Of a stretch of DNA of 64,000 nt, positions 1,003 through 64,000 are shown one piece after another. The position numbers and the translations under genes were made by a program. Below the pieces are notes generated by a model, which searched no databases, had not been told where the DNA came from, and saw nothing but the letters and a program-made list of their open reading frames with translations. This stretch comes from Candidatus Kaiserbacteria bacterium. GTDB taxonomy: Bacteria > Patescibacteriota > Minisyncoccia > Phycocordibacterales > UBA2100. The DNA lies in contig JAHFMV010000003.1 in assembly GCA_023267655.1 (NCBI GenBank), forward strand, positions 16,522-80,521, written 5' to 3'. Positions within the stretch are counted from its first letter, which is position 1, and each line of letters starts with the position of its first letter.

Positions 1003-1035
1003 CATCTCACTCAAACCCAAACAGCGGGGCGCGAT

Positions 1036-1154
1036 AGATGTCTTTGCTTCGAGAGAACATCGCGCAGCAGATACTAAAGCGTGATGTCATACAGCAGTAG
1101 ATGTGACGTTAAAGCGTCCGCTCAGTTCGTGTTCGGTCCGAAGCAAAGACATCT
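1036..1154. repeat. copy 1 of a ~110-nt conserved 3'-proximal element (core GAGAACATCGCGCAGCAGATA...GTGATGT.ATACAG.AGTAGATGTGACGT...CAGTTCGTGTTCGG) closed by a 16-bp perfect inverted repeat (agatgtctttgcttcg / cgaagcaaagacatct)
   Basis: Near-identical core also at 5741-5863 and, reverse-complemented, at 12815-12925. Lies between the stop of the 1174-2694 gene and the terminator. Confidence 0.7.
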
Positions 1155-1173
1155 GTCGCGCCAACGTCAACCT

Positions 1174-2694
1174 CTACTGCTCGCGCCACAGCACCAGCTT
1201 GTAATCCACCGAAGCCGAAGGCGTAAACGCCGGCGGCGAAAATGCGAGGAGGCGATCGTACGTATCAATGCGTTGCGCAAAGCCCGAGCAGTACGTGCCG
1301 CTGCACGTCCACTGCGTCCCAATGCGGCCGTTCGAAACCACGGTGCCGATCGTCGTCAGCTGCGTCTGTTTTACATACGACGTATACGCGCTCGGCACCG
1401 CGTTATTGCCTGTTTCTGCGTAATAATTCCTCCCGAAATATCCCGACTGCGCGACAAAAATCCCGCGCACGGTCATCATATCCGGCGATACCAGAGGAAT
1501 CGTTACCGATCGCTCGGCGATTGCGGTGAGGCCGCTGGAGCCCGTACCGGAAGAATATGTGATGTTATTTTGCAAAATAATATCCGGCGTATACGCGCCG
1601 GTATCGGCCGCAACCACCGTCACTTTGTTCCCCACGATGCCTTCGAGCCACGTCTTCGCTTGTACATAAATGATAGGACAGCCCGAGGGAATCGTGTAGT
1701 GACCTTGGTACGTCTCACTGGTGATGATGTCGTAGTCCGTCGCCCACGAGCCCGGATTATCGGTATGCACACTGTAGACGCCTTGCGTACCCGTCACGCG
1801 ATATACATCTATTGTATTGTCGGCATTTAATTTTACGTGGTAGCCGCGCTGGTCGGAGGCTCCAACAGAACTAAACGTCCCGCCCTGCTGCGAACCGCCA
1901 ACTTTCACGCGATCGATATCCAGAAGGATGCCTGTGGAGTTCGCGTAACCCCGCAGCGTGGCAAAGTTGGTCGCGATGCCCGCAAAATTAAATGACGCAA
2001 CGTTCGGTGCCCATGACCAGAGTGCAGAACCTGACCCCGAACCCCACACGCCGTTTTTGCTCTGCGTCGGCGAGCAGCCGAACGATGAATCGCACGACCA
2101 TGTCGCAACCGCGCTCTGCACGGTGGAATTGGTTGTGCCATCCATGCGAATGCCGCCGTTTGAAAAATACGGACCCGATATGACACGATCGGCACCCGCC
2201 CACACATTCGCATTGAGAAGCGCGGAATATTCTCCGACCGACGGTCGCATGTAGCGTGCGTTTAAGGTGCGCGTGAAGACAACTGACTGATCGGATTTCC
2301 CGACCGACGTGAGATCAACCCATTGCACCACTCCGCACTGCAAATTCGCTGTCGCGGTGATCGTCGATTCGCCGAGGCGGCTCGCTTCCGGATCATTGAC
2401 GATGTACGTATAGGGCGACGTGAGGCCGACGCCCGCGTTCATAATCGAAGGATTGTGCGCGAGGAACCACCGATAGTATTCAAGTCCCGCTTCGGAAATG
2501 TTAAATGCCTGCTCGCGCGCATTGAGCGCGCGGCCGTACTTCCCCTGTGTAAGCACATAACTCATGATCGTGGCGAGAAGAAAGAGAAAGATGCCCATGA
2601 ATGCAAGGACGAGCATGACGGTCACGCCGCGGGAGTAGCGTCGAGCGTCAAGCGTCGAGCTGCGAGACTTTTCTGCTTGCGTTGTGTATATCAT
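1174..2694 (-). CDS. PilX-like type IV pilus minor pilin / large pseudopilin (506 aa)
   Basis: N-terminal hydrophobic helix VMLVLAFMGIFLFLLATIMSYVL typical of the PilX N-domain; large Gly/Ser/Thr-rich extracellular region; clusters with pilB/pilC. Confidence 0.55.
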   Translation of the reverse strand: MIYTTQAEKSRSSTLDARRYSRGVTVMLVLAFMGIFLFLLATIMSYVLTQGKYGRALNAREQAFNISEAGLEYYRWFLAHNPSIMNAGVGLTSPYTYIVNDPEASRLGESTITATANLQCGVVQWVDLTSVGKSDQSVVFTRTLNARYMRPSVGEYSALLNANVWAGADRVISGPYFSNGGIRMDGTTNSTVQSAVATWSCDSSFGCSPTQSKNGVWGSGSGSALWSWAPNVASFNFAGIATNFATLRGYANSTGILLDIDRVKVGGSQQGGTFSSVGASDQRGYHVKLNADNTIDVYRVTGTQGVYSVHTDNPGSWATDYDIITSETYQGHYTIPSGCPIIYVQAKTWLEGIVGNKVTVVAADTGAYTPDIILQNNITYSSGTGSSGLTAIAERSVTIPLVSPDMMTVRGIFVAQSGYFGRNYYAETGNNAVPSAYTSYVKQTQLTTIGTVVSNGRIGTQWTCSGTYCSGFAQRIDTYDRLLAFSPPAFTPSASVDYKLVLWREQ

Positions 2695-2731
2695 ATGGAT
2701 TTCCTTGAAGCTTGACGCTCGTAGCTCGAAG

Positions 2732-3382
2732 CTACTTTAGATTCCTCAGCGCGGCTGTTGAGCGCAGGGTGAATTGGTTCGGCAACCGATTCGGATTGAT
2801 GTTAACGACGATCGTCGCTTGGACGAACCGCACTTCCGCGATTTTCGAGAGATCATTCATGAGCGTGCCATTCTGATCATAATACTGGAACATCAAGACA
2901 TTCTGTTCCGTGTTGCGCACATTGTCAGAAACGGTTGAGATCGTCTCCGGATTGGTATAAACCGGCGGATCGCTTGACGGATCAATGACACCGCGCATCA
3001 GAGAATTTCCTTGGAGAAAGAACCGCACTTGCTCGAGAAACGCATCGTCGTCAATGTCCGCATAAAATGAAAAGCTCGAGGTCGCCATCGAAATGATCGG
3101 CCACGCGCCATTCGAGGAATACGCGGCCTCGCGAATGGTCTTGATCATGCTCTCCATGCCGTGTTGCCCCGACGTGATCGCCGCGCCTTGCTCGACGGTG
3201 TACGTATTGGTGCGATAAAACGCTTGTACGGTTTGCGTGATCGCGAGCATGATCATCGTCGTGATCGCGACCCACACCATCGTTTCGAGCAAACTGATGC
3301 CACGGGAAGCGCGGCAGCCACTAGCGACTAGCCAATAGCCACTAGGGGAATGCTTGGATGCTTTTTTGATTTTGGATTTCAT
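2732..3382 (-). CDS. type IV pilin-like protein with prepilin-type leader (RG|ISLLETMVWVAITTMIMLAI)
   Basis: Class III signal-peptide motif G-ISLLE followed by a hydrophobic helix. The unusually long 28-aa leader is partly encoded by the TAGCCACTAG repeat. Confidence 0.6.
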   Translation of the reverse strand: MKSKIKKASKHSPSGYWLVASGCRASRGISLLETMVWVAITTMIMLAITQTVQAFYRTNTYTVEQGAAITSGQHGMESMIKTIREAAYSSNGAWPIISMATSSFSFYADIDDDAFLEQVRFFLQGNSLMRGVIDPSSDPPVYTNPETISTVSDNVRNTEQNVLMFQYYDQNGTLMNDLSKIAEVRFVQATIVVNINPNRLPNQFTLRSTAALRNLK

Positions 3383-3407
3383 ACTAGTGGCTAGTCGCTA
3401 GTGGCTA
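3317..3407. repeat. inverted pair of family-A repeats (agccactagcgactagccaatagccactagg 3317-3346; ctagtggctagtcgctagtggcta 3384-3407) bracketing the pilin start codon at 3380-3382
   Basis: Read directly from the sequence; same motif family recurs at 11480, 22043, 33670/33774, 40515/40553, 55017/55085. Confidence 0.7.
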
Positions 3408-5650: not shown

Positions 5651-5740
5651 GACTGTCCTCCATCGATTGCCTATTTCCAATGTCCACACTAACCCTACCC
5701 GAACGGTGCACAAAACTCAACACAACCACTAAGGAGCGAT

Positions 5741-5863
5741 GGCGTGAAAAATGCTTCGAGAGAACATCGCGCAGCAGATAGTAATACGTGATGTAATACA
5801 GTAGTAGATGTGACGTAAAAGCCACTGATCAGTTCGTGTTCGGGTTGAAGCATTTTTCACGCC
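5741..5863. repeat. copy 2 of the ~110-nt conserved element, closed by 17-bp perfect inverted repeat ggcgtgaaaaatgcttc / gaagcatttttcacgcc
   Basis: Core near-identical to 1052-1135; lies directly 3' of the pilC stop (5877). Confidence 0.7.
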
Positions 5864-5876
5864 ACCGCGACACGCT

Positions 5877-7133
5877 CTAGATATTGTCCGAGAGTTGGTA
5901 GATCGGGCTGATCATCGCGACTGCAAAGAAGCCGACGGCTGCACCGATCGCAAGCATAAGGAATGGCTCAATGATCGTCGACATGTCTTTCGTCTTCCGA
6001 TCCACTTCGTCTTCGTAAAAGACTGCAAGCTTTTTCATCATCTCGGTCAACTGCCCTGTCTCTTCGCCGACCGCAATCATCTCGCCCACAAATGCCGGGT
6101 ATAAATGCTCCGCGCGCACAAAAGCGCTCGAGAGCGGCTCACCTTTTGAAATATTTTCCTTCGCCTGCCCGATGACTTTCTTGAAATAATGATTCTGCAC
6201 AACGTCTTGCACGATCTCGAGCGAGGTCACCACATCCACGCCGCTCGAGAGAAGCGACGCGAGTGTCCGCGCCGTGCGCGCCGCATTCACCTCTTTCACG
6301 ATCGGCCCAATGATCGGAATGTGCAAAAAGACGAAATCCTTTGCGCGCCCGCCCGCTTCAGTGCGAAGCGCGGTATAGATGCCCCCGACGCCGATTATGA
6401 GAATTGAGAACGCAAGAATCGTGTACTCGACGAGGAAATTCGATACCGCGATGATTGCGCGGGTCGAAGCCGGCAGTTGCGCCCCCATTTCCTTAAACGT
6501 CGAGGCAAGCGTCGGAACAACATTGATCATCATAAAGGTACCGATGCCGAGAATCGCACAGACGATGATGATCGGATAGAGCATCGCACCACGAATTTTC
6601 TTCTTCAAGACATACATCCGCTCCATCTGGTCGGAGGTGACGACGAGTGCTTGCGGCATCTCACCGCCTTCCTCGCCCGCGCGCACCATCGCGACAAACA
6701 GTTTGGAGAAAACATGCGGGAATTTTGCCGCAGCAGAATGCAGTGTCTCACCGCGGCGCACCGCGCCCGATAATTCCGCAACCACGCTGCCGAGCCGCGG
6801 GTTTTTCGTCTGGCGCTCTATGACCGCAAGTGCTCGCGCAAGCGAAAGTCCCGCAGAGAGCATCGCGCCCAAGTTGCGCGAGAAGAGAATCTTCTCGTAT
6901 TCCGGCACCGTCGTTATTTTTGAATTCCAATACTGGAGGCTGAAGACGCCGTGCCTCTTTTCTTCGTCAACCGCGAGGATGCGGCCGCCTTCATGCCGCA
7001 CTATTTCGTACAACTCAAACCGATCGCGCGCCTGCGCGGTCCCTTTATATACTTCCCCGTCGCTTTTTTCCGCCGTGTATGAAAATCTCGCCACAGAATC
7101 AGTATACCGTATTCCGTATACAGTATTCCGCAA
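5877..7133 (-). CDS. pilC: type IV pilus assembly platform protein PilC (GspF family)
   Basis: Two GspF-type repeats and three TM segments; N-terminus ARFSYTAEKSDGEVYKGTAQARD typical of PilC. The first ~11 codons (TTG start at 7133) overlap an inverted-repeat arm, so the true start may be the GTG near 7094. Confidence 0.8.
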   Translation of the reverse strand: MRNTVYGIRYTDSVARFSYTAEKSDGEVYKGTAQARDRFELYEIVRHEGGRILAVDEEKRHGVFSLQYWNSKITTVPEYEKILFSRNLGAMLSAGLSLARALAVIERQTKNPRLGSVVAELSGAVRRGETLHSAAAKFPHVFSKLFVAMVRAGEEGGEMPQALVVTSDQMERMYVLKKKIRGAMLYPIIIVCAILGIGTFMMINVVPTLASTFKEMGAQLPASTRAIIAVSNFLVEYTILAFSILIIGVGGIYTALRTEAGGRAKDFVFLHIPIIGPIVKEVNAARTARTLASLLSSGVDVVTSLEIVQDVVQNHYFKKVIGQAKENISKGEPLSSAFVRAEHLYPAFVGEMIAVGEETGQLTEMMKKLAVFYEDEVDRKTKDMSTIIEPFLMLAIGAAVGFFAVAMISPIYQLSDNI

Positions 7134-7543
7134 AATGCACTATGTACGAATTCGATTTGGCGCCGTGCGGATTAATCCCGTCAACATTTGCGACACGGTT
7201 TCGGCTTTCTTTTCAAGTGCAGTAAAAGAATCGCGGGAAATATATTCCAAATCGCGTGCGATGAGTAACTGGCTCCTCAACTCTGAAAGTGAAGCGAGCG
7301 AAGTCGTATAAAAATTGATCTTGTCATTTTTCGTCTGCCGCACGAATCCCTCTGCAATATTTGAAGTAACAGAAACTGCGGCGCGGCGGATCTGACTGGT
7401 TAATCCGAAAAGTTCATCTTTTGGAAAAGTCTTGCTGGCTGTATATATCTCAAGAACAAGCGAGTGACCTTCTTGCCAAACACGTAAGTCCGTAAAACGC
7501 TGGATCATGGTGCGGTATACGGAATACTGTATACGGTATACGC
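7100..7543 (-). other. cassette: four-helix-bundle gene bracketed by ~31-bp inverted repeats (cagtataccgtattccgtatacagtattccg 7100-7130; gcggtatacggaatactgtatacggtatacgc 7512-7543) in the pilC-pilB intergenic position
   Basis: Arms are reverse complements over about 20 of 22 core positions. The right arm abuts the pilB stop (7544); the left arm overlaps the annotated pilC start. Confidence 0.65.
7140..7508 (-). CDS. four-helix-bundle protein of the 23S rRNA intervening-sequence protein family
   Basis: MIQRFTDLRVWQEGHSLVLEIY...AVSVTSNIAEGF matches the family's conserved N-terminal pattern (compare paralog at 54115). ORF-track start (GTG 7547) is encoded by the repeat arm, so ATG at 7506-7508 is preferred. 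Confidence 0.7.
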   Translation of the reverse strand: MIQRFTDLRVWQEGHSLVLEIYTASKTFPKDELFGLTSQIRRAAVSVTSNIAEGFVRQTKNDKINFYTTSLASLSELRSQLLIARDLEYISRDSFTALEKKAETVSQMLTGLIRTAPNRIRT

Positions 7544-9286: not shown

Positions 9287-9294
9287 AGGGATGA

Positions 9295-9362
9295 GGTTCT
9301 AGGTTCTAGGTTCTAGGTTCTAGGGAATCCGAAGTCCTCTGCAACCTTGCACCTTAAACCTG
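9295..9362. repeat. tandem heptamer (GGTTCTA x ~4.5) plus a family-B-like segment, 9 nt upstream of the pilB start codon
   Basis: gaggttctaggttctaggttctaggttctaggg then ctctgcaaccttgcaccttaaacctgacacctaa. On the pilB coding strand this reads CCTAGAACCT x4 immediately before the ATG. Confidence 0.65.
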
Positions 9363-9456
9363 ACACCTAATTTGTCATGCGCAGATTGATTATAGCAAGA
9401 TTTGGATGTAAGGTTGCGGCAGTCGCCACAGGGTCGCGACAAACAGGGAGATTCAC

Positions 9457-15118: not shown

Positions 15119-15125
15119 TGTATTC

Positions 15126-15157
15126 ACCTAGAACCTAGTCCCTAGAACCTAACACCT
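15126..15157 (+). repeat. family-B leader motif (cctagaacctagtccctagaacctaacacct) ending 6 nt before the ATG at 15164
   Basis: Same CCTAGAACCTAACACCT module as at 54486, 55850 and, on the minus strand, 9295-9325. Confidence 0.6.
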
Positions 15158-15163
15158 ATCTTT

Positions 15164-26536: not shown

Positions 26537-26569
26537 ATTCCCAAGTAAGGCGACCAGCCGTATTGGCAG

Positions 26570-26675
26570 AAGGCAAAAAATGCTTCACGAGGGTCTTCGC
26601 AGCGGCGTCGGGCGCGAGACCGAGCGCTGGCGCAGCAGCGCCAGATAGCGACCCGAGGGAAGCATTTTTTGCCTT
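26570..26675 (+). other. long hairpin: 17-bp perfect inverted repeat aaggcaaaaaatgcttc / gaagcattttttgcctt enclosing a 72-nt GC-rich interior
   Basis: Shares the AAAAATGCTTC...GAAGCATTTTT closing stem and the GCGCAGCAG / CAGATAG words with the ~110-nt 3' element family; lies 34 nt after the cca stop. Confidence 0.5.
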
Positions 26676-26703
26676 TTGCCACAAACATACAAAGCAAAAG
26701 CCG

Positions 26704-33404: not shown

Positions 33405-33671
33405 ATGCTGACGAAGCGAAAGAAGCAAAACGAAATCGGCAAGGTTAAGCGCCACGACACTGATACCGGCTCGCCGGAGGTGCAAGTCGCGCTCTTGACC
33501 CGCCGTATCGAAGAGCTCTCGGCACATTTGGATAAGAATCGTAAGGACAAAAGCTCCCGTCGCGGACTTTTGGGGCTCGTGGCTGATCGCCGCAAGCATT
33601 TGAAATACCTTGAGTCTACCAACAAGCGCTCGTATTCAGCGCTCACGAAGAAGCTCGGATTAAAAAAATAG
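33405..33671 (+). CDS. rpsO: 30S ribosomal protein S15
   Basis: Full-length S15 pattern (KRHDTDTGSPEVQVALLTRRIEELSAHL...RRGLLGLVADRRKHLKYL). Confidence 0.9.
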   Translation: MLTKRKKQNEIGKVKRHDTDTGSPEVQVALLTRRIEELSAHLDKNRKDKSSRRGLLGLVADRRKHLKYLESTNKRSYSALTKKLGLKK

Positions 33672-33800
33672 CGACTAGTGATTAGCCACTAGGAAATGCG
33701 GGCTCTCCAAATCGTCAGCTATAATCTGCATAGAGCAGATTTTTAGAAGCATTATCAGTTTTTATATTGAATTCACTAGTGGCTAATCGCTAGTGGCTAA
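33670..33800. repeat. inverted pair of family-A repeats (agcgactagtgattagccactagg 33670-33693; cactagtggctaatcgctagtggctaa 33774-33800) with an 80-bp AT-rich spacer, ending 6 nt before the ATG at 33807
   Basis: Read directly from sequence. Confidence 0.7.
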
Positions 33801-40514: not shown

Positions 40515-40575
40515 TTAGCCACTAGCCACTAGGGGAAAGGCGGACTGAATTTCCTATTGGCTAGTGGCTAGTGGC
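40515..40575. repeat. inverted pair of family-A repeats (ttagccactagccactagggg / cctattggctagtggctagtggc) with 17-bp spacer
   Basis: Read directly; ends 24 nt before the ATG at 40600. Confidence 0.7.
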
Positions 40576-40599
40576 TTTTTGTTCATGTATTATAGGGCG

Positions 40600-51235: not shown

Positions 51236-53458
51236 ATGCACACACTCACAACACTACGCACATCGCCGATTGCAAGACTCCTCGTCGTCATCTTCTTGTG
51301 CATGACGCTTTTCAGTCTCTCGCTTCCGATGGTGGTGTTTGCGCAGACGACAGACGATGGTTCGGGTACAGTGGCTCCGACTCCCGCGGGGTCGCAGACA
51401 CCGCCTACGGATCGTTGTGCGTGGTATAGCTCGTGGTCGAGTCCAGTTACGTGTATTTTTCGCGCACTATTTGTCGGAAGTTCCTCGGGTTTAATCTGGT
51501 TAACAGGCTGGATCCTTGGAATTGCTGGCGTGCTTTTTAATGCAGCGCTTGAATTTACGACGCAGGGATTTGATTCGCAGATTTACGCAAAAATACAAGG
51601 AGGCATTGAGGCCGTTTGGACGGCGTTTCGCGATATCGCCAATATCCTCATTATTGGAATGTTCACGTTTACCGCACTCACCATGATTCTCGGCATTGAA
51701 TCGTTCAACGCAAAGAAAATGGTCGCGAAAGTTCTCCTCATCGCCGTTCTCATCAACTTTAGTCTCCTATTCACGCGACTTGTCATTGCGTCATCGAATT
51801 TTGTCGCGGTACAATTTTACAAGGCTGCGAAATTCGACACGAGTACCTCTCTAGCATCAGCGCAATCGGTAGCTGGCCAAACATCCCCATACAATCAATT
51901 TTCTGCGGGTATTTCTGGAAAATTTGCACAATTGATGGGGGTTGCTGGGTTTAGTGATTCTGCCGGGGCGCTCTGGGAAATTGCGCAAAAACAAGACAGT
52001 GGCTTACTTGCACTTGGCCAGGGTGTCTTGACCGCATTGATTTTTACCGGAGCGGCATTGGTATTTCTCTACGCATCATTTCTCCTTATCGCGCGAGCAA
52101 TTCTTTTTGTGCTGCTACTCATAACGTCTTCATTGGCATTTGCAGCGCACTTACTGCCCAGCAAGATCACCATGGGATACGATGGTTGGAGCGCGTGGTG
52201 GAGTTCTCTCCTTAAAAACGCGGTCTTCGGCCCGATGCTACTTATCCTTCTGTGGGCAACGATCCAACTAGGTGAGGGTATACGAGCAACAAACAGTACT
52301 TTGGGATCGCTTCTTGTTGATCCCGCAAAAGGAGGTGGTATCAATGCGCTCTTCAGTTATCTCCTTATCCTCGGCATGTTGTACGCTTCAATTAAGATCG
52401 CAAGTATGTTTGCAAATAAGGTTGGTGGATTCAATTGGGCAGCTGTTGCACCAGCCTGGACAGCAAACAAGATTATGGGATTTGGGGGATTTGGTGCTCG
52501 ACAAACAGTGGGTCGAGGTGGCGCATGGGTGGATAAAACCTTGACATCCCGTGCGGCTGCCCAGCCTGACACTTTCGGCGGTAAAATGCGCCGCAGTTTG
52601 CTTCAAATTGGAGCTTCAGCCGGAGCTGCGGCCACTAAACGCGACTTTAACTTGGCAAAGACAAAAGTCGGTGCAGAGCTCGGTGCCGTAAGTGGCCTTA
52701 AGATAGGGAAAGAAAAGGCGCTCGGTGGATTCGATGGAACAGAAAAGCGACGTGCAGAAGCATTCGCAGAACAGGGTGAAAAATTCGCGAAAGCGGCGAA
52801 AGATTTGAGCGCTGATACGAAAAAACAAATTGCGTTGCAAGGTAATCCTGAACTTCGCGATCGCTCAGAACGCGCAGACGCAAACCACGGACAAGCGGAT
52901 CGAGATAACCAAGCAAATCAACAAAGGGCGATGCAGCTTGCTGACGATCATCGTCGCGCAGTTCAAAATGAGGAGACGTTACGCACGAACGTTGAGCAAT
53001 TACGTTTGGACCGACAACAAATGGAACAGGACGTCCGTGCTGGCAGGCGACAACAATCAGAACTTGATGAGCAAGATAATCGTATTCGTGATACTCAATC
53101 TCGCATCATCGATTCGAGACAACGAAATTCTACGCTCCAGAGACAAGTTGATGATGCTCGGCGTACGGCAAATGAATCTCAACAAGCATTCACTCAAGCC
53201 GCGAGAAACGTGCAGAATGTTACGAAAGAGATTGAGGATCGCTTTAGCGCAGGTGGATTTGCCGAAAATCTCGCTTATAATCGCTTGAGCAACACGCTGC
53301 TGAAGCCCGCTGACGCAAAAGATGACGCATTGGCCCAGAGAGCACGTGCGGCAACTGGCGATCGTGCCCGCAAAAAACGTTTGCGTGACGCGTTAGCAGA
53401 CGACGTTCGAGACACGACGAGAGAATTCCAACCGCCACCAGCCCCAACAAACCATTAA
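51236..53458 (+). CDS. VirB6/TrbL-like polytopic membrane protein with C-terminal charged coiled-coil extension
   Basis: At least 7 hydrophobic segments in the first 400 aa, then a 300-aa R/Q/D/E-rich region; position and topology fit VirB6/TrbL. Confidence 0.5.
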   Translation: MHTLTTLRTSPIARLLVVIFLCMTLFSLSLPMVVFAQTTDDGSGTVAPTPAGSQTPPTDRCAWYSSWSSPVTCIFRALFVGSSSGLIWLTGWILGIAGVLFNAALEFTTQGFDSQIYAKIQGGIEAVWTAFRDIANILIIGMFTFTALTMILGIESFNAKKMVAKVLLIAVLINFSLLFTRLVIASSNFVAVQFYKAAKFDTSTSLASAQSVAGQTSPYNQFSAGISGKFAQLMGVAGFSDSAGALWEIAQKQDSGLLALGQGVLTALIFTGAALVFLYASFLLIARAILFVLLLITSSLAFAAHLLPSKITMGYDGWSAWWSSLLKNAVFGPMLLILLWATIQLGEGIRATNSTLGSLLVDPAKGGGINALFSYLLILGMLYASIKIASMFANKVGGFNWAAVAPAWTANKIMGFGGFGARQTVGRGGAWVDKTLTSRAAAQPDTFGGKMRRSLLQIGASAGAAATKRDFNLAKTKVGAELGAVSGLKIGKEKALGGFDGTEKRRAEAFAEQGEKFAKAAKDLSADTKKQIALQGNPELRDRSERADANHGQADRDNQANQQRAMQLADDHRRAVQNEETLRTNVEQLRLDRQQMEQDVRAGRRQQSELDEQDNRIRDTQSRIIDSRQRNSTLQRQVDDARRTANESQQAFTQAARNVQNVTKEIEDRFSAGGFAENLAYNRLSNTLLKPADAKDDALAQRARAATGDRARKKRLRDALADDVRDTTREFQPPPAPTNH

Positions 53459-53462
53459 TTAT

Positions 53463-54077
53463 ATGTCCGACGATAAGAAAACTTTGGATGTTGAACTAAA
53501 GGAACGCTTTGCTCAACTTCCTAAAGTTGTACAAAATGCAATTACCTCAGCAGAGGTTGAAAAATTACTGCGGAGCTTGGCTGATACTCAAAAATTACAT
53601 TTGGATCAGTGGCAATCCTTGGAAAACGAAGTCATGATGGCGTTACTGGGCGTACAACCCATTGGAAATTTACAAGAAAACATCGGTAAGGAAGTTGGGG
53701 TGAGCGCTGATGTAGCTAAAACGCTCGCAGAAAATATCAACAAAATCGTCTTCGAACCCATTCGCCAAGAACTCGAACGCCAGCTAGAGCATCCGGAGGC
53801 GCAAGCGAAGCAGGTGAGTACCATTGAGGCGGCGCGGGCAGAGACGCTTGCGGGGGCGCAGCCGGCAGCCGGGAGCCAGCAGCCGGGAGCTAATTCAGAA
53901 TCCGCTCCGAGCTCCGGGCTACAGGCTCCAAGCTCGGTTCTACCGGCAACACCACCATCGCTCGTGCCTGACATAAAAGTCACGCGCCCCTCTGAATCAA
54001 CCGCCTATAAACCGGGCGAACCATCAACACAGCGCGCCGCGGTGCACGACGACCCGTATCGGGAGCCGCCACTCTAG
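53463..54077 (+). CDS. hypothetical protein (204 aa)
   Basis: ORF only; its stop overlaps the left arm of the IVS cassette. Confidence 0.4.
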   Translation: MSDDKKTLDVELKERFAQLPKVVQNAITSAEVEKLLRSLADTQKLHLDQWQSLENEVMMALLGVQPIGNLQENIGKEVGVSADVAKTLAENINKIVFEPIRQELERQLEHPEAQAKQVSTIEAARAETLAGAQPAAGSQQPGANSESAPSSGLQAPSSVLPATPPSLVPDIKVTRPSESTAYKPGEPSTQRAAVHDDPYREPPL

Positions 54078-54510
54078 GTGACAGGTTCCAGGTGTCAGGT
54101 TTTAGGGAAAATACATGGATAAAATTCGATCGTACAAAGATCTTATTGTTTGGCAGAAAGCGATTGGCGTTGTCACTGACGTGTATCTAACGACCAAGAA
54201 ATTTCCTTCAGAAGAGCGATTTGGACTTTCTTCACAAATGCAACGCGCGGCTGTTTCGATAGCTGCAAACATTGCAGAAGGACACGGGCGTGGAACACGA
54301 AGTGACTATGCTCACTTTTTGGATATGTCAAATGGCTCGGTATCCGAATTGGAGACGCTCTTCATCATTGTCAGAAAACTATCATATTGTTCGGACGAAC
54401 AATGTAGTAAAATAGAAGGACAGTTACATGAAGTTGGGAAGATGCTTGGATCTCTCCGAAGTAAGTTACGTGTTCGCCCCTAGCACCTAGAACCTAACAC
54501 CTGGAACCTA
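54074..54510 (+). other. cassette: four-helix-bundle gene bracketed by family-B inverted repeats (aggttccaggtgtcaggttttagg 54084-54107 versus cctagaacctaacacctggaacct 54485-54508)
   Basis: Arms are reverse complements at ~20 of 22 positions. The insert 54108-54484 is almost exactly the 369-bp gene. Confidence 0.7.
54115..54483 (+). CDS. four-helix-bundle protein of the 23S rRNA intervening-sequence protein family (second copy)
   Basis: MDKIRSYKDLIVWQKAIGVVTDVY...AAVSIAANIAEGHGR parallels the 7140-7508 paralog. Confidence 0.7.
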   Translation: MDKIRSYKDLIVWQKAIGVVTDVYLTTKKFPSEERFGLSSQMQRAAVSIAANIAEGHGRGTRSDYAHFLDMSNGSVSELETLFIIVRKLSYCSDEQCSKIEGQLHEVGKMLGSLRSKLRVRP

Positions 54511-54515
54511 ATTCT

Positions 54516-55022
54516 ATGCAATTCCAAGTTCCCCAGTTCATTGAGGTCGAGGACAAGATCTTTGGGCCTCTCACCTTCAAACAATTCGTCTACATCGCAG
54601 GAGGCGCCGGCTGCGGCTATCTGCTGTGGCGCGTTCTTCCTATTTACCTCGCCGCCCCCCTTATCGCCGGCGTCGTCGGCCTCGGCGCGGGGTTGGCCTT
54701 CTTCAAATACAACGGCCAGCCCTTTATCCTCGCCCTCGAGCATGGTTTTTTCTTCTTTGTACGCAGCAAGCTCTACCTCTGGAGCAATGAAGTGCGCGAT
54801 ACTACGAAAAAGAAAGATCTCGCGGCACAAATAGCCGCTCCCGCAGCACAGATTTACGTCCCGAAGCTCTCCGACGGCAAGCTGCACGAGCTCGCGTGGA
54901 GTCTCGACATCAAAGAGCGCATCGCAGGAGGAACTGCCGATGACGACGAGCGCGCAGACAGCTCACCACTGAAGGGCATCATCGCGCCCGTCCGTACCGC
55001 GCGTGAGGCGCTCATTAACTAG
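54516..55022 (+). CDS. PrgI-family (VirB3-like) T4SS membrane protein
   Basis: MQFQVPQFIEVEDKIFGPLTFKQFVYIAGGAG followed by two TM helices matches the PrgI family N-terminal pattern. Confidence 0.55.
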   Translation: MQFQVPQFIEVEDKIFGPLTFKQFVYIAGGAGCGYLLWRVLPIYLAAPLIAGVVGLGAGLAFFKYNGQPFILALEHGFFFFVRSKLYLWSNEVRDTTKKKDLAAQIAAPAAQIYVPKLSDGKLHELAWSLDIKERIAGGTADDDERADSSPLKGIIAPVRTAREALIN

Positions 55023-55115
55023 CCAATAGCCACTAGGTATTTGCCACTAGAAAATGCATATGAATCCAAAAATTTCCTTAATGTATTGGCCAGTGGCTAG
55101 TCGCTAGTGGCTAAT
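55017..55115. repeat. inverted pair of family-A repeats (taactagccaatagccactagg ... attggccagtggctagtcgctagtggctaat) ending 10 nt before the ATG at 55126
   Basis: Read directly; the spacer contains CATATGAAT..TTCC, also seen in the 55820-55850 spacer. Confidence 0.7.
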
Positions 55116-55125
55116 AACTATTTTT

Positions 55126-55800
55126 ATGCCTGAAACCGTCACCTCAACAAAGCCGACCAGCAAATCGACACAGCAATTTGTGCCGGTTTCCGAAGTGCGC
55201 GACGGTATCTTGATCCTCAAGGACAAGAGCCTGCGTGCGATCCTTCTTGCGTCGTCGATCAATTTTGCGCTTAAATCTGAAGACGAACAGACGGCGTTTA
55301 TCGTGCAATTCCAAAACTTTCTCAACTCGCTCGACTTTTCGTGCGAAATTTTCGTGCAATCGCGCATGCTCGACATCCGCCCGTACATTGCATCCCTCGA
55401 GGTCGCCTACAAAGGGCAGCTCGACGACCTTATGCGCATCCAAATTCGCGAATACATCGAATTCATCAAGAGCTTTACCGAGGCCGCGAACATCATGACG
55501 AAAAATTTCTTCGTCGTCGTCCCGTATTCGTCGACGGCGATTTCGCTTTCCGGCAGTGGCGGCATCGCGGGGAAATTACCGTTTGGACGCAAAAAAAATA
55601 CGGCAGAGGATGCGAACCGTTCGTTTGAAGAGCAGGTCTCACAGCTTGAGCAACGCATTTCGATCGTGCAGCAGGGTCTCGTGCGCTGCGGCGTACGCAC
55701 CGTGCAGCTTGGAACCGAAGAGGCGATCGAACTGATGTACAAACTCTTCAACCCGGGCGAAGAAGGGAAGCCGATGACGCTGGATGCAGGTGCCAGGTGA
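55126..55800 (+). CDS. VirB4/TrsE-like N-terminal domain encoded as a separate ORF
   Basis: FVPVSEVRDGILILKDKSLRAILLASSINFALKSEDEQ resembles the N-terminus of Gram-positive-type VirB4 ATPases; stop codon lies inside a family-B repeat arm. Confidence 0.45.
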   Translation: MPETVTSTKPTSKSTQQFVPVSEVRDGILILKDKSLRAILLASSINFALKSEDEQTAFIVQFQNFLNSLDFSCEIFVQSRMLDIRPYIASLEVAYKGQLDDLMRIQIREYIEFIKSFTEAANIMTKNFFVVVPYSSTAISLSGSGGIAGKLPFGRKKNTAEDANRSFEEQVSQLEQRISIVQQGLVRCGVRTVQLGTEEAIELMYKLFNPGEEGKPMTLDAGAR

Positions 55801-55879
55801 CAGGTTCCAGGTTACAGTAAAATATAAATACAATACATCATATGAATTTCCTAGAACCTAACACCTGGAACCTGTAACC
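55794..55879 (+). repeat. family-B inverted pair (ggtgacaggttccaggt 55796-55812 / acctggaacctgtaacc 55861-55877) with 48-nt AT-rich loop, separating the two VirB4 ORFs
   Basis: 17-bp stem with one mismatch; forward arm CCTAGAACCTAACACCTGGAACCT ends 5 nt before the ATG at 55882. Confidence 0.65.
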
Positions 55880-55881
55880 TT

Positions 55882-58800
55882 ATGGCTTTATTGGATCTTT
55901 TCAAAAAATCTTCGGTCCCCGCGGCGACGGTGCTGCCGGTCCTTCCGGAAGAAATCTACCGCACTGGCGTCCTCGGCCTCCAGGACGTGATCGCACCGCA
56001 CGCACTTCGCGTCTCGCCGCGCGAGCTCGACCTTGGCGAAAAAATCGCGCGCACGTTTTTTGTGATCTCATACCCGCGCTTCCTCACGACGGGGTGGTTT
56101 GCGCCGATCATCAACATGGACAAGGTGCTCGACATCGCGATTTTCATCCATCCGATGGACACGAACGAAATGCTGCGCAAATTTCAGAAAAAAGTCGCCG
56201 AGGTGCAAAGTCAGATCGCGACGCGTGAGGAAAAGGGGATGGTGCGCGACCCAATGCTCGATACCGCATATCAAGACCTCGAAAAATTGCGCGACTCTCT
56301 GCAACAAGCGCAGGAACGCATTTTTGATGTCGGACTCTACCTCACGATCTACGGCTCGAGCCGCGAAGAAATAGATAAGGTAGAGAGCGAAATCCGCTCG
56401 ATCCTCGAGAGCCGCCTCGTGTACATCCGCCCGGCACTTTTCCAGCAAGAACAAGGCTTCCGCTCGACGCTCCCGATTGCGACCGATGAATTAAACGTCC
56501 ACACGAAACTCAATTCGGCGCCGCTCTCGTCCATCTTCCCGTTTATTTCATTCGACCTAACGTCCGACAGGGGAATCCTTTACGGCATCAACCGCCACAA
56601 TTCGTCACTTATTTTGTTCGATCGATTTTCTTTGGAGAATTATAATTCGGTCACTTTCGCAAAGTCGGGAGCAGGTAAGAGCGTCTGCTACGAAGAGCCC
56701 GTTTTGACACGTGAAAGCGGAATCATACGTTATGCGCCAATTGGTCAAGTGGTGGAAAAAACTATTAAAAAACATGGTTGCAGAAAGATTGACGACGAGT
56801 TAGAGGGAGTTATCGATCCGGGTATTGAAGTGTTCAGTTTTGATCAAGACATGCGGGGGCGTTGGAGTAAAGTATCGGTCGCTGCACGAAAAGATGCCCC
56901 AGATACATACTACGCATTCAGGACAAAAAGCGGCCGCGAGGTAACAACTACTGCTGATCACAACATGCTAGTCTTACGACGCGGGAAAGTTATTGCCGCG
57001 AAAAGTGAAAATGTGAAAGAGGGAGAGTATATTCCTCTGCCGCGCAGCGTGCATCCATCCCTGCACTCCCCCCGTCATATAGGATCTAGCCTCTTGCCGG
57101 TAACAGAACATCTCAGTTCTGTCCTTGGTTGGATCGCAGCAGAAGGGACTATCGCGAAACGCTCGATCATTATCAGCAACACCGATCAGGAATCACTGTC
57201 ACACATTGAAAATGAATGTCGAGCCCTCGGTTTTTCCTGCGGCAGCAACAAGCGGTGGGTTGCCATTTATGGCAAACGTGTCTGTGAACAGCTAAAAGCC
57301 CTTGGCGCAACGGGAAAATCCGGTACTAAAACAGTCCCCGGATTTCTTTTTAACACGTCGCGCGATGTGGTCGCCTCATACCTGCAAGCGTATTTCGAAG
57401 GTGATGGCGGTGTAGAAAATCACGAAATTACTGCGCTTTCAAAGTCGAAAGAGCTGATATCAGGGCTTTCGTATTTGTTGTACTACTTCGGCATTATTGC
57501 GCGGATACAGAAGCGGCAGAAGAAATACGCGAAGACGGGACGCAAAAGGACATTCTGGATGCTTAGCATTTCAGGTCAGGATAATATCCGGAAATTCCAA
57601 GAGCACATCGGCTTTATTTCGACGCGAAAAAAGGAGGCCCTCGCGAAAATCGCCGTTAAAAACGGAAATACCAACTGCGATATCGTGCCGGGACTACAAC
57701 CGCTTGCGAAAGAGCTTGAACTCCTTTTCGATACGCAGCTGTCGGACATATCCGACTTCTCCGCGCTCAAGCAGGGTCACGGCCTCTCGCCGACTCGGCT
57801 CGGAACACTTGTCGATACAATGGAGGCGCGCGTGCGGCGGTTCAAGGACTTGTATCCTTTCATGCAGAAATTGCAGGATCTGCCGACTGTTGAAGCGATT
57901 ATCAAAAAAGCTGATGGAGATCGCGATTTGAATCACAGGCTTATTGAAACAATGAGCAGCTCATGGTTTACGGTCAAGCAAGGAATGCCACCACGAACGA
58001 AAAATGCGCTGAAAATCTTTGAAACTGCAGGTGTCGAAGCTCCAAAAACCATCGACGAATTAAAGGGGATGGTGGAGAGCGGCGTCTCGAATTTGCGCGT
58101 CCCGAGGAGCGATTTTGATGAGTACCTTACGAGATCCCTGCATGGTACTCGCGACAATTCGTCGTACGAACTCCTACGCACCGCATCACAATTTATTTTT
58201 TGGGAGTACCGCCGCACGCTACACAACTTGCATCGCGTCGAAGAAATCATCGCTATGTTTAAGACGCTCGTGAACGCCGACCTTTTCTGGGATCCGATTG
58301 TTTCTATCGTGAAAAAGGCCAACAAAAAAGACAAGTATGTATACGACCTCACCGTTGACGACGAAGTGTTCCTCGCGGGACACGGCGGCATGTTCGTGCA
58401 CAATTCATATACGACGAAGCTTGAGATTCTGCGCTCTTTAATGTTCGATACGGAAGTCATCGTCATCGACCCGGAACGCGAATACGAATATCTCGCGACG
58501 ACCGTCGGCGGCCGCTACTTCAACATTTCACTCTCCTCCGAACACCATATCAATCCGTTTGATCTCCCCATCCCACGTGAAGACGAGAACCCCGGCGACA
58601 TTTTGCGCAACAACATCATTACGCTCGTTGGCCTCTTCCGCATCATGCTCGGCGGACTTACGCCAGAAGAGGACGCCGTCATCGACAAGGCGATTACGGA
58701 AACCTACGCACTCAAAGACATTACGCAAGACGCGAATTTCGCCTCTATCGAGCCGCCGCTCCTCTCCGACTTTGAACTGGTCTTAAGCGGCATGGAAGGA

Positions 58801-59685
58801 TCAGAATCACTCGTCGCGCGCCTTTCGAAATATACGAAAGGCACGTGGTCGGGATTCATGAACCGCCCGACCAACGTCGATATGAACAAAAAACTTACGG
58901 TCTTTTCCGTGCGCGATATGGAAGATGATTTGAAGCCGGTCGCGATGTACATCATTACACACCACATTTGGAACACGGTAAGGAAAGAACTGCGAAAGCG
59001 CCTGCTTGTGATCGACGAGGCGTGGTGGATGATGAAATCGCAAGACACGGCGAGCTTCCTTTTCGGTATTGCAAAGCGCGGCCGTAAATACTATCTCGGT
59101 CTCTCGACGATTACGCAGGACGTCAACGACTTTCTCACCTCACCGTACGGCGCGGCGATGATCACGAACTCATCAATTCAGCTCCTTCTGCGCCAATCAC
59201 CGACGTCGGTTGATCTTGTACAAAGCACGTTCAAATTGACTGATGAAGAAAAGTATTTGCTCCTCGAATCCGACGTGGGGGAGGGGATTTTCTTCGCCGG
59301 ACTGAAGCATGTTGCCATCAAAGTCATCGCCTCGTACACCGAAGACCAAATCATTACCTCCGATCCGTCGCAAATCCTCGCTATCAAGAAAGCAAAAATG
59401 GATCTCGCTTCTGCAAACGATACAAGCGCACCTGCCGCACCACGACAGAGCGCCGCTGATATCTTAAAAGCCGCGGCCATGAAGGAATCGAGCGGTATCG
59501 CGCAGCAGGCCGCTACCGAGGCACTACCAACGCAAACACCAGCGGCAAGCACAGAATCCGACAATCCGCTTCCACCGCCCCCAACACCGACTCCTACTCC
59601 ACCGCCCTCGCCTGTCGCGCCTGCACCTGCGGCACCCACCGCGCCCTCGCTTCCACCCGAAGCAAATCCTGATCGTCCGGTATGA
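55882..59685 (+). CDS. VirB4/TraE-like T4SS ATPase (extein ~694 aa) interrupted by an in-frame 573-aa intein
   Basis: Walker A FAKSGAGKS immediately before the intein; C-extein SYTTKLEILRSL...LLVIDEAWWMMKS (DEAW Walker-B-like) and conserved VirB4 C-terminal region; Pro-rich tail. Confidence 0.8.
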   Translation: MALLDLFKKSSVPAATVLPVLPEEIYRTGVLGLQDVIAPHALRVSPRELDLGEKIARTFFVISYPRFLTTGWFAPIINMDKVLDIAIFIHPMDTNEMLRKFQKKVAEVQSQIATREEKGMVRDPMLDTAYQDLEKLRDSLQQAQERIFDVGLYLTIYGSSREEIDKVESEIRSILESRLVYIRPALFQQEQGFRSTLPIATDELNVHTKLNSAPLSSIFPFISFDLTSDRGILYGINRHNSSLILFDRFSLENYNSVTFAKSGAGKSVCYEEPVLTRESGIIRYAPIGQVVEKTIKKHGCRKIDDELEGVIDPGIEVFSFDQDMRGRWSKVSVAARKDAPDTYYAFRTKSGREVTTTADHNMLVLRRGKVIAAKSENVKEGEYIPLPRSVHPSLHSPRHIGSSLLPVTEHLSSVLGWIAAEGTIAKRSIIISNTDQESLSHIENECRALGFSCGSNKRWVAIYGKRVCEQLKALGATGKSGTKTVPGFLFNTSRDVVASYLQAYFEGDGGVENHEITALSKSKELISGLSYLLYYFGIIARIQKRQKKYAKTGRKRTFWMLSISGQDNIRKFQEHIGFISTRKKEALAKIAVKNGNTNCDIVPGLQPLAKELELLFDTQLSDISDFSALKQGHGLSPTRLGTLVDTMEARVRRFKDLYPFMQKLQDLPTVEAIIKKADGDRDLNHRLIETMSSSWFTVKQGMPPRTKNALKIFETAGVEAPKTIDELKGMVESGVSNLRVPRSDFDEYLTRSLHGTRDNSSYELLRTASQFIFWEYRRTLHNLHRVEEIIAMFKTLVNADLFWDPIVSIVKKANKKDKYVYDLTVDDEVFLAGHGGMFVHNSYTTKLEILRSLMFDTEVIVIDPEREYEYLATTVGGRYFNISLSSEHHINPFDLPIPREDENPGDILRNNIITLVGLFRIMLGGLTPEEDAVIDKAITETYALKDITQDANFASIEPPLLSDFELVLSGMEGSESLVARLSKYTKGTWSGFMNRPTNVDMNKKLTVFSVRDMEDDLKPVAMYIITHHIWNTVRKELRKRLLVIDEAWWMMKSQDTASFLFGIAKRGRKYYLGLSTITQDVNDFLTSPYGAAMITNSSIQLLLRQSPTSVDLVQSTFKLTDEEKYLLLESDVGEGIFFAGLKHVAIKVIASYTEDQIITSDPSQILAIKKAKMDLASANDTSAPAAPRQSAADILKAAAMKESSGIAQQAATEALPTQTPAASTESDNPLPPPPTPTPTPPPSPVAPAPAAPTAPSLPPEANPDRPV
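56686..58404 (+). mobile_element. intein with LAGLIDADG homing-endonuclease domain inserted in the VirB4 P-loop
   Basis: Block A CYEEPVLTRESGIIRYAPIGQVV (Cys1 at 56686), block B TTTADHNMLV, DOD motifs LGWIAAEGTI and LQAYFEGDGGV, block F/G KYVYDLTVDDEVFLAGHGGMFVHN followed by Ser+1 (58405). Confidence 0.75.
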
Positions 59686-63295: not shown

Positions 63296-63413
63296 CAGAT
63301 AATTTTCAATTCTCAATTTTCAGTGAATTTTCAATGTTCCAATGTTTGAAAATTGATTCATTCGAACTTGAATGAAAATTTGAAATTGATAATTGATAAT
63401 TGATAATTGAAAA
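63296..63413. repeat. AT-rich repetitive spacer (TTTTCAAT words, GATAATTGA x3 tandem, palindrome cattcgaacttgaatg) between yidC and jag
   Basis: Read directly from sequence. Confidence 0.6.
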
Positions 63414-64000
63414 TTAGTCTGATTTCTTATCCCCAAATCGTCGTCCCATGAAAAGTTCCTGCCCAATCATAAAGAGGTTTGAGGTCGTCCAGTAGAGAGG
63501 TACGGCGGCAGAAACCGTAAATGCAATGCCCGCGACGATAAGCGGGAGGATGTAGCGCGCCTGGAGGTCGAAACTCTTGGCCATGTCATTTGAAAACGAT
63601 TGCTCTACGGGCGACGTGGCCATTTGGTTGCGAGGTCCCATGGAGAGACGCGCGTAGGTCAGTTGCGTGAGACCCGCGAGTGCAGCAAGAAGAATGCTTT
63701 TCTTTCCCATGTCGATAAGTCCGAGAAACTCCATGTTAAACATTTTCGGGACCGGAACGAACGAATACAAAAGGTCGGGATTGACGTGGGGAAGACCGCC
63801 GCGGCCGAAGACCCAATAGAGGCCGAGGAGGATTGGGAATTGGATGAGAATGAGAAAAAATGAAGAAAACGGCCGAATGCCGCGTTCTTTGTAGAGGGCA
63901 AAAATTGCTTTTGCCTGTTCGTCTTGTTTATCTTTGTATTTTGTTTTAATCGCTTCAATGTTCGGCGCAATCGCCTTCATCGCCATTTGCGTGCGGATCG
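63414..64000 (-). CDS. yidC: membrane protein insertase YidC, partial (N-terminus beyond window end)
   Basis: Conserved YidC/Oxa1 core ...IKTKYKDKQDEQAKAIFALYKERGIRPFSSFFLILIQFPILLGLY...; the reading frame stays open to position 64000. Confidence 0.8.
   Translation of the reverse strand, partial: IRTQMAMKAIAPNIEAIKTKYKDKQDEQAKAIFALYKERGIRPFSSFFLILIQFPILLGLYWVFGRGGLPHVNPDLLYSFVPVPKMFNMEFLGLIDMGKKSILLAALAGLTQLTYARLSMGPRNQMATSPVEQSFSNDMAKSFDLQARYILPLIVAGIAFTVSAAVPLYWTTSNLFMIGQELFMGRRFGDKKSD

Follow-up and report, generated by a model that had tools for sequence, protein, structure and literature searches.

A probable IVS-type selfish hairpin cassette, with MITE-like short derivatives, at a junction of a T4SS-like operon

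In the 64-kb window (the whole stretch of DNA that was analysed), part of a Parcubacteria (Patescibacteria) genome, the junction between a 204-aa gene (up204) and a PrgI-family gene is occupied by the gene of a 122-aa four-helix-bundle protein, IVP, enclosed by inverted repeats. We interpret this feature as probably an IVS-type selfish hairpin cassette that sits at a T4SS-like operon junction and is accompanied by MITE-like short derivatives. A comparison that took in about 170 other loci suggests that the window copy is one instance of a widespread insertion element. The literature on IVS elements and the S23p/IVP ORF within them goes back to the early 1990s and has regarded them as a curiosity of rRNA; we know of no function that has been assigned to either. 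The sequences compared here, which come from Patescibacteria, Bacteroidota, Planctomycetota and Xanthomonas, indicate that elements in rRNA are apparently exceptional and that the general form is the repeat-armed operon-junction cassette.

Results

Architecture of the cassette

The cassette lies among protein-coding genes of a T4SS-like operon, in the order p740, up204, PrgI, VirB4-N and VirB4-C. The core of each arm is 24 nt long, the two cores are 379 nt apart and 22/24 of their positions are complementary, giving an arm-to-arm span of 427 nt within a filled junction of 438 nt (Table 1). The arms are degenerate tandem heptamers, not plain palindromes, and the right arm complements the left. 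The left-arm pattern, allowing up to three mismatches, occurred three times in the window and in none of 100 shuffles, and the third occurrence (55850-55873) was identical in sequence to the right arm of the cassette. When RNA spanning 54060-54530 was folded, the arms paired (z = -5.0). The GC content of the cassette was 0.43 compared to 0.53 and 0.58 for the flanking genes. The sequence-only reading had described a gene of the IVS family of four-helix-bundle proteins, surrounded by near-perfect inverted repeats and lying between two secretion-system genes, and had proposed that the arms fold together; the paired positions, the PF05635/TIGR02436 assignment, the location at the up204-PrgI junction and the predicted fold all agree with it. 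The IVS-like architecture that it proposed, a stem around an IVS-protein gene, also held on comparison with the Coxiella IVS, which has a protein of the same family, a similar length and stem, and a similarly lowered GC content.

Table 1. Coordinates of the cassette, its downstream genes and the related elements in the window
Feature	Position	Strand	Remarks
Left arm, heptamer array TAGGTGA CAGGTTC CAGGTGT CAGGTTT TAGGG	54075..54107	+	Core pairing 54083-54106
Short leader AGGGAAAATAC	54103..54114	+	SD-like AGGGA ~7 nt 5' of the IVP ATG
IVP gene, 122-aa four-helix-bundle protein	54115..54483	+	PF05635 / TIGR02436, Avd-like
Right arm CCTAGCA CCTAGAA CCTAACA CCTGGAA CCT	54479..54509	+	Core pairing 54486-54509
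6-nt tail AATTCT	54510..54515	+	From right arm to PrgI ATG (54516); without SD
PrgI-family protein	54516-55022		Downstream of cassette
Gene-less short hairpin filling the PrgI to VirB4-N junction	55017..55123	+	AGCCACT / CTAGTGG heptamer arms
VirB4 N-terminal/TrsD-like protein (VirB4-N)	55126-55800		Downstream of PrgI
Gene-less short hairpin filling the VirB4-N to VirB4-C junction	55787..55881	+	AGGTnnC arms
VirB4/TraG-type ATPase (VirB4-C)	55882-59685		Interrupted by a LAGLIDADG intein
Second full-length element	7102..7542	-	GTATACC-type heptamer arms, IR span 435 nt; between pilB (T2SSE) and pilC (T2SSF); IVP paralogue at 7158-7505, minus strand
Short heptamer-armed hairpin	2637..2726	-	AGCGTCG / AGCTTCG type
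Short heptamer-armed hairpin at gene junction	3316..3407	-	AGCCACT type
Short hairpin downstream of pilB	9294..9370	-	(AGGTTCT)4 paired to AGGTnnn units
Solo right-arm-type array CACCTAGAACCTAGTCCCTAGAACCTAACACCTA	15125..15158	+	Ends 5 nt 5' of an ATG; without left partner; probable remnant
Short heptamer-armed hairpin	33669..33799	-	AGCCACT type
Short heptamer-armed hairpin	40516..40576	+	AGCCACT type
Short heptamer-armed hairpin between yidC and jag	63300..63416	-	AATTTTC / TTGATAA type

The cassette is fitted closely to its neighbours. The first TAG of the left arm is the stop codon of up204, and the stop codon of the IVP gene is overlapped by the right arm. Leaders resembling the one that precedes the IVP gene (GAAAATnCATG) were also found in related elements and on the 5' side of the loops of short hairpins. 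The AATTCT tail stands in place of the leaderless promoter, TGnTATAAT-N5-7-ATG, of unoccupied junctions. No sigma-70-like promoter was predicted on the plus strand between 53300 and 56000, so that PrgI and VirB4 are probably transcribed through the cassette. An Rfam search of 53300-56200 at E <= 1 returned sub-threshold chance matches only and no rRNA. The 122-aa IVP is the sole ORF of the cassette, which has no transposase, recombinase, nuclease or reverse transcriptase (RT) domain. No direct repeat that would mark a target-site duplication was evident on comparing occupied and empty junctions, where the heptamer arrays blur the boundaries.

If the arms matched by chance, or if they were a common intrinsic terminator or attenuator flanking an unrelated small gene, this would account for the existence of a stem and for nothing more. 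The pattern was absent from 100 shuffles, the promoter/terminator scan predicted no terminator or T-tract at the arms, and dozens of loci show the same architecture. The shuffles, together with the censuses of inverted repeats in loci and metagenomes described below, refute this explanation, to which we give practically no weight.

Related elements in the same window

The window holds two full IVP elements and about eight short hairpins. The IVP of the second element, located between pilB and pilC, is 40% identical to that of the cassette. Two of the short hairpins fill the remaining junctions downstream of PrgI in the same operon. In the one that precedes VirB4-C, the left arm codes for the last VirB4-N residues and the stop codon; this hairpin aligns at 83% identity with the ends of the IVP cassette when these are joined, and it contains the 24-nt right arm without a change.

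The IVP protein

The IVP of the window is a member of PF05635/TIGR02436 and resembles Avd, a protein of diversity-generating retroelements (DGRs). The dN/dS values of 0.06-0.12, obtained with saturated synonymous sites, indicate that the IVP is under purifying selection. The resemblance to Avd suggests that the IVP may bind structured nucleic acid. PADLOC defence models had no matches to either of the two IVPs of the window.

The same resemblance raises the question of whether the gene could be the Avd of a DGR, or a remnant of one. The IVP scored below the curated cut-offs of the Avd family models (43.1 against a cut-off of 80 for NF033474, and 32 against 40 bits for PF22296), its neighbours are T4SS components, there was no RT domain among the genes scanned, and the orthologous loci show an isolated insert. 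A DGR origin is thus very improbable, and we rejected it on the sub-cut-off scores and the lack of an RT nearby.

Presence, absence and decay at orthologous junctions

A genome scan with the PrgI protein yielded 80 loci, all from Patescibacteria/Parcubacteria MAGs, and the gene order p740, up204, PrgI, VirB4-N (b4N) and VirB4-C (b4C) is common to all of them. The PrgI-b4N and b4N-b4C junctions usually measure 1-10 nt and the up204-PrgI junction 20-60 nt. A subset of the loci carries inserts of either 65-140 nt, which are hairpins whose arms are of the same kind, or 410-520 nt, which consist of an IVP gene with its arms, at any of the three junctions. The long inserts are mostly upstream of PrgI, with others at PrgI-b4N (L019, L064 and L068) and b4N-b4C (L032 and L067). 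Most of the orthologous operons have no IVP, and their empty junctions have neither arms nor gene. The presence of the element is patchy on the NJ tree of the hosts.

An HMM census of the window and loci (1.43 Mb) found 21 IVP hits. All 19 hits from the 80 loci were in this operon, within the three junctions and co-oriented. A significant flanking inverted repeat was present at 17/18 of the IVP sites detected by tblastn in the genome loci and window (0/100 in shuffles), and the elements so flanked were 412-499 nt long, leaving out a decayed 199-nt remnant in L007. Among all 254 inverted repeats of the window and loci, the arms were enriched for a period of 7 only, with 39 arms compared to 4-8 for each of the other periods between 4 and 11. 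The lengths of elements with heptamer inverted repeats were bimodal, at 50-150 nt and 400-500 nt.

The way in which the elements join their neighbours is also conserved. Either the left arm sets in at the stop codon of the upstream gene, with the TAG inside a heptamer, or it replaces the last few codons, as seen in the replaced b4N C-termini DAGAR*, ASRG* and NSQQS*. Many arm types, built of TAG or TGA heptamers, place stops in all three frames of the left arm, and others, such as GTATACC and AGCGTCG, do not. Between the end of the right arm, often CTAnyCCT or TAATTCT, and the downstream ATG there are 0-16 nt, in most cases 3-12 nt, and no SD. At empty PrgI junctions, TGnTATAAT is conserved 5-7 nt before the ATG, and a leaderless mRNA is thereby implied. 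This -10 element was found at 35/67 unoccupied and 0/14 occupied PrgI junctions (Fisher p = 1.7e-4).

Arms and gene are inherited as a unit. The IVPs that are 75-84% identical to that of the window (L095, L032, L096 and L097) all have AGGTnnC arms, and the arms of this lineage stay recognisably similar. The neighbours on the host tree (L002 and L009) have, at the same junction, IVPs that are ~50% identical and arms of the AGCTTC type. In the window, L024, L025 and L064, the short hairpins and the IVP element of one genome have arms of the same type. In L025, two short hairpins from different junctions share 86% identity over 117 nt and have nearly identical loops. Since arm type tracks IVP lineage and intermediate deletion derivatives exist, we lean towards arms and gene travelling together rather than the cassette entering pre-existing stems.

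Decayed copies were found as well. The IVP gene is frameshifted in L048 and truncated in L056. A 207-nt insert in L007 retains both arms and IVP residues 77-119, and L010 retains the last ~20 IVP residues (E 0.037, marginal). Other small genes of a selfish type occupy these junctions in some loci, namely a PDDEXK_3 gene inside a heptamer inverted repeat (L046), a GIY-YIG gene (L056), a Gp49/HTH toxin-antitoxin pair (L049) and Y1_Tnp genes (L001, L006 and L028). The GIY-YIG, toxin-antitoxin and Y1 inserts have no inverted repeats, and in L001 and L006 a left arm is retained beside the inserted IS200-like Y1 transposase gene. A tblastn search of the loci for further PDDEXK_3, GIY-YIG and Y1 cargos gave too few copies for a comparison with the IVP.

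Collectively, the presence, absence and decay at orthologous junctions, the use of several junctions and the short derivatives in the same genomes suggest the behaviour of a selfish element. The sequence-only reading had proposed an inserted cassette and had raised the possibility of empty sites with repeats only; gene-less hairpins and completely empty orthologous junctions were both found, and the idea of an insertion gains support from these and from the inverted-repeat censuses in genomes (17/18) and metagenomes (58/74, below).

Spread across phyla and metagenomes

The same type of cassette occurs in unrelated operons of other phyla. In Bacteroidota, an IVP gene with TAGnGAA heptamer arms lies between sdhA and sdhB, and in Pirellulaceae (Planctomycetota) one lies between DUF58 and moxR within a perfect 29-nt inverted repeat. 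For Xanthomonas, whose XCC0516 family includes a structurally solved member, a placement within the published GGGAATC heptamer repeats was predicted beforehand and then borne out: the IVPs of X. campestris and X. sacchari separate accB from accC, and each has GGGAATC arrays to its left and, to its right, arrays of the GATTCCC type that end at the accC ATG. Inverted repeats built of 7-nt repeats are common to the Bacteroidota, Planctomycetota and Xanthomonas copies, and a Brevundimonas copy has kept only an array like the left arm. In addition, 18 IVP genes inside cas loci were noticed by Zhang and Ye (PMC3936711), which fits intrusion into operons.

These placements bear on whether the IVP could be a domesticated, functional part of secretion and pilus operons, for example an RNA-binding regulator of a stem that sets the stoichiometry or stability of the mRNA. 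The strong purifying selection on the IVP agrees with such a role, as do the confinement of all 19 locus hits to this one operon, the second window copy in pilB/pilC, the location of the closest relatives at the same junction and the replacement of the native PrgI promoter. Against this, most orthologous operons lack the IVP, copies are decayed, frameshifted or truncated in L048, L056, L007 and L010, and the same cassette type is found in the unrelated sdhAB, accBC and moxR operons and in cas loci (PMC3936711). We therefore consider domestication improbable. For the selfish cassette, the same-junction location of the closest relatives (75-84% identical) and the 19/19 hits in a single operon are also compatible with vertical residence over a long time or with a local role, as opposed to frequent transposition.

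A metagenome scan, with an alignment of 14 IVP sequences as the query, gave 80 loci, of which 74 could be tested for inverted repeats. A significant flanking inverted repeat was found in 58/74 of these IVP genes and none was detectable in the other 16. The arms were periodic in 55 of the 58, with a period of 7 in 42 and of 8 in 13. The 5' arm was G-rich and C-poor, and 'AG' was phased in 46/55 left arms. Among the 44 IVP genes with evaluable neighbours, 25 were co-oriented with both and five were opposed to both. No rRNA was present in the 80 fetched loci, and it is on this basis that the rRNA context appears to be exceptional. The genes without inverted repeats (16/74) and the orientation of some against their neighbours are observations that count against the selfish cassette reading.

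The heptamer hairpins themselves could be primary, as REP/REPIN-like repeats spread by another enzyme or kept by the host as mRNA structures. Small selfish ORFs, most often the IVP, would insert into the protected site that the loop offers, and the IVP would be a passenger there. This would agree with the count in the window of about eight short hairpins to two that carry an IVP, with PDDEXK_3 as a different cargo inside a heptamer inverted repeat (L046), and with the IS200-like Y1 genes at the same junction, which lie by a retained left arm in L001 and L006 and occur also in L028. It would further agree with the about 70 convergent GGGAATC pairs, near stop and start codons, reported per Xanthomonas genome in a study that leaves the IVP gene unmentioned (PMC4692102), and with the position of the 23S rRNA IVS at the tips of pre-existing helices (PMC4990558). 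On the other hand, arm type tracks IVP lineage, the loops of short hairpins keep sequence like the IVP leader, deletion derivatives are graded, and empty orthologous junctions have neither arms nor gene. Moreover, inverted-repeat flanking is the rule for IVPs in several phyla (58/74), and the Y1, GIY-YIG and toxin-antitoxin inserts have none. Together, these results make a primary role of the hairpins unlikely and favour the selfish cassette whose arms and gene travel together.

Discussion

The layout of the selfish cassette would limit harm to the host operon, as the left arm is at, or supplies, the upstream stop codon, the right arm is just before the ATG, and the gene is usually co-oriented. 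We propose that the operon transcript would read through the cassette and that the arms, forming a stem of at least 24 bp, would pair and loop the cassette out, bringing the upstream stop beside the downstream start. By analogy with 23S rRNA IVSs, the stem would be a likely RNase III substrate. Processing would release the IVP mRNA, and PrgI would be left with a short leader that mimics its native leaderless state. A ribosome that reaches its stop codon in the left arm would also melt the stem, which could couple translation of the IVP and of the downstream gene. The sequence-only reading had likewise suggested excision or processing at the stem; in the one indirect test of this, stem mismatches on the sense strand comprised 20 G.U, 25 A.C and 63 others, so that this low-power test gave no signal of selection at the RNA level, and constraints on the arms at the DNA level or from protein recognition are equally possible.

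As domains of a transposase, recombinase, nuclease or RT are absent from the cassette, and a clear target-site duplication is absent too, we infer its mobility from its distribution. It is possible, and we suggest this tentatively, that PF05635 IVP cassettes constitute a separate class of mobile hairpins that extends across phyla and has no recognisable transposase. An Avd-like pentameric IVP would recognise its own arms of 7-8-nt repeats and, aided by RNase III, another nuclease of the host or a reverse transcriptase, would propagate full and short copies into stop/start junctions. In that case, the 23S rRNA IVSs would be special cases or footprints of this class, and so would the unexplained heptamers of Xanthomonas and, possibly, those of cyanobacteria. 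If the IVP does act on its own arms, mobility or RNA processing would here proceed by a mechanism that needs no classical transposase, and this would account for IVP genes in unrelated operons, cas loci included. XCC0516 of Xanthomonas, located between accB and accC in a genome with ~70 gene-less GGGAATC hairpins, suggests itself as a tractable test system. We found no literature linking PF05635 genes to heptamer inverted repeats or operon-junction cassettes; our coverage was incomplete and an earlier description is possible.

Comparison with known systems

The closest likeness is to the 23S rRNA IVS with its S23p/IVP ORF, as found in Coxiella burnetii and Leptospira, which shares with the cassette a PF05635 protein and a stem of terminal inverted repeats around the ORF, in an element within the range of about 0.4-0.8 kb. 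The Coxiella IVS has a 28-bp stem and a length of 428-444 nt, and RNase III cutting has been reported for the Coxiella, Leptospira and Salmonella IVSs (PMC4990558). The cassette is comparable in length (427-438 nt) and stem (24 bp, of which 22 are paired), and is likewise lower in GC than its host and sporadic in occurrence. Unlike the rRNA IVS, it lies between protein genes of an operon rather than in helix 9, 25 or 45 of 23S rRNA, its arms are tandem heptamers, and gene-less short hairpins occur alongside it. Excision by RNase III has been demonstrated for Coxiella, whereas the stem of the cassette, which is known from sequence, is a potential substrate. Decay has been reported for the ORF of the Coxiella element (PMC4990558), in contrast to the purifying selection on the cassette IVP. 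Because its location is outside rRNA, the cassette, though homologous, is not classified here as an rRNA IVS. The difference from the Avd of DGRs (PDB 4DWL and 8UB7) is larger, as the IVP is ~11% identical to it and belongs to a stand-alone insert that has neither an RT nor template or variable repeats nearby.

In the REPIN-RAYT system, the gene of a REP-associated tyrosine transposase lies between inverted REPs, and there are dispersed doublets of REPs as well. The cassette resembles it in being intergenic and in having a single gene between inverted repeats that also form gene-less doublets elsewhere. Unlike REPIN-RAYT, it carries between its repeats the IVP gene in place of an HUH/Y1 transposase, each arm is a tandem series of 7-8-nt units instead of one palindrome, and arm sequences vary between element lineages within one genome. 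Like MITEs and the autonomous TIR transposons to which they belong, full and internally deleted copies share their terminal repeats, and presence varies among related genomes. Unlike them, the full-length copy has no transposase, no target-site duplication is evident, and the insertions lie precisely between stop and start codons.

The GGGAATC repeats of Xanthomonas and the heptamer repeats of Nostoc have been interpreted as simple repeats that form G-quadruplexes (PMC4692102). The repeats of the window differ from those of Xanthomonas in not being of the G4 type. The GGGAATC / GATTCCC arrays that bracket the XCC0516-family IVP are the same objects as the arms of the cassette. The comparison thereby joins three separate literatures, those on rRNA IVSs, on the DGR protein Avd and on bacterial heptamer repeats.

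Genomic placement of IVP genes and other occupants of the T4SS operon

In the Patescibacteria/Parcubacteria loci that carry the orthologous T4SS operon (L001-L080, 1.37 Mb), all 19 IVP matches were found in the three operon junctions, and none was found in the remainder of these 20-kb loci. The second IVP copy of the window is located between pilB and pilC. The up204 to PrgI junction, a site of the IVP cassette, was also found to take IS200-like Y1 (HUH) transposase genes in three loci. In L001 and L006, the transposase gene is accompanied by a retained left arm of heptamers and by a leader resembling that of IVP, as if it had displaced an IVP cassette. Operon junctions also carried other small cargos: one PDDEXK_3 gene, one GIY-YIG gene, and a toxin-antitoxin pair of Gp49/HTH type. 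Within the operon of the window, a VirB4/TraG-type ATPase gene is split by an intein that carries a homing-endonuclease domain of the LAGLIDADG type, and the T4SS operon therefore houses several kinds of selfish element.

Coordinates of repeats, cargo genes and the intein-containing gene
Feature	Locus and position	Context
Strong inverted repeats without heptamer periodicity	window 1028-1162; 5736-5868; 26564-26681	
IS200-like Y1 (HUH) transposase genes, PF01797	L001 1849-2544; L006 9301-9996; L028 9211-9993	up204 to PrgI junction
PDDEXK_3 (GxxExxY-type) gene	L046 10459-10866	within heptamer inverted repeat
GIY-YIG gene	L056 10625-10879	operon junction, without inverted repeats
Gp49/HTH toxin-antitoxin pair	L049 2707-3370	operon junction, without inverted repeats
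VirB4/TraG-type ATPase gene with intein	window 55882-59685	Intein_splicing residues 312-841; LAGLIDADG_3 residues 495-577
XCC0516-family IVP gene, Xanthomonas	L090 1430-1872; L093 1487-1926	between accB and accC

A conserved extended -10 element (TGnTATAAT or TATACT) was observed 5-7 nt before the PrgI ATG (~22 nt upstream of PrgI) in L004, L005, L008, L011, L012, L020, L021 and others. It was present in 35/67 unoccupied loci compared to 0/14 IVP-occupied loci. The spacing of the -10 to the ATG implies that the PrgI mRNA would be leaderless in Parcubacteria.

Repeat periodicity and IVP cassettes in other phyla

Among 55 periodic IVP-flanking inverted repeats from the metagenomic loci (L099-L178), the arm unit was 8 nt instead of 7 in 13, for example AGGGACTT, AGGCACAA and GTGCCTGA, and 'AG' was in phase in 46 left arms. 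The three non-heptamer inverted repeats of the window have arms of 22-32 nt that are 88-96% complementary and spaced by 54-89 nt; because two of them share the motif AAAAATGCTTC, they may represent a separate repeat family.

The Pirellulaceae IVP cassette (L085-L087) lies at the DUF58/moxR junction within a perfect 29-nt inverted repeat and is antiparallel to both neighbours, which shows that sharing the direction of the host operon is preferred but not obligatory. In Xanthomonas, the XCC0516-family IVP gene is bracketed by GGGAATC heptamer repeats, which have been described as G-quadruplex-forming and of which ~70 gene-less convergent pairs occur per genome (PMC4692102).
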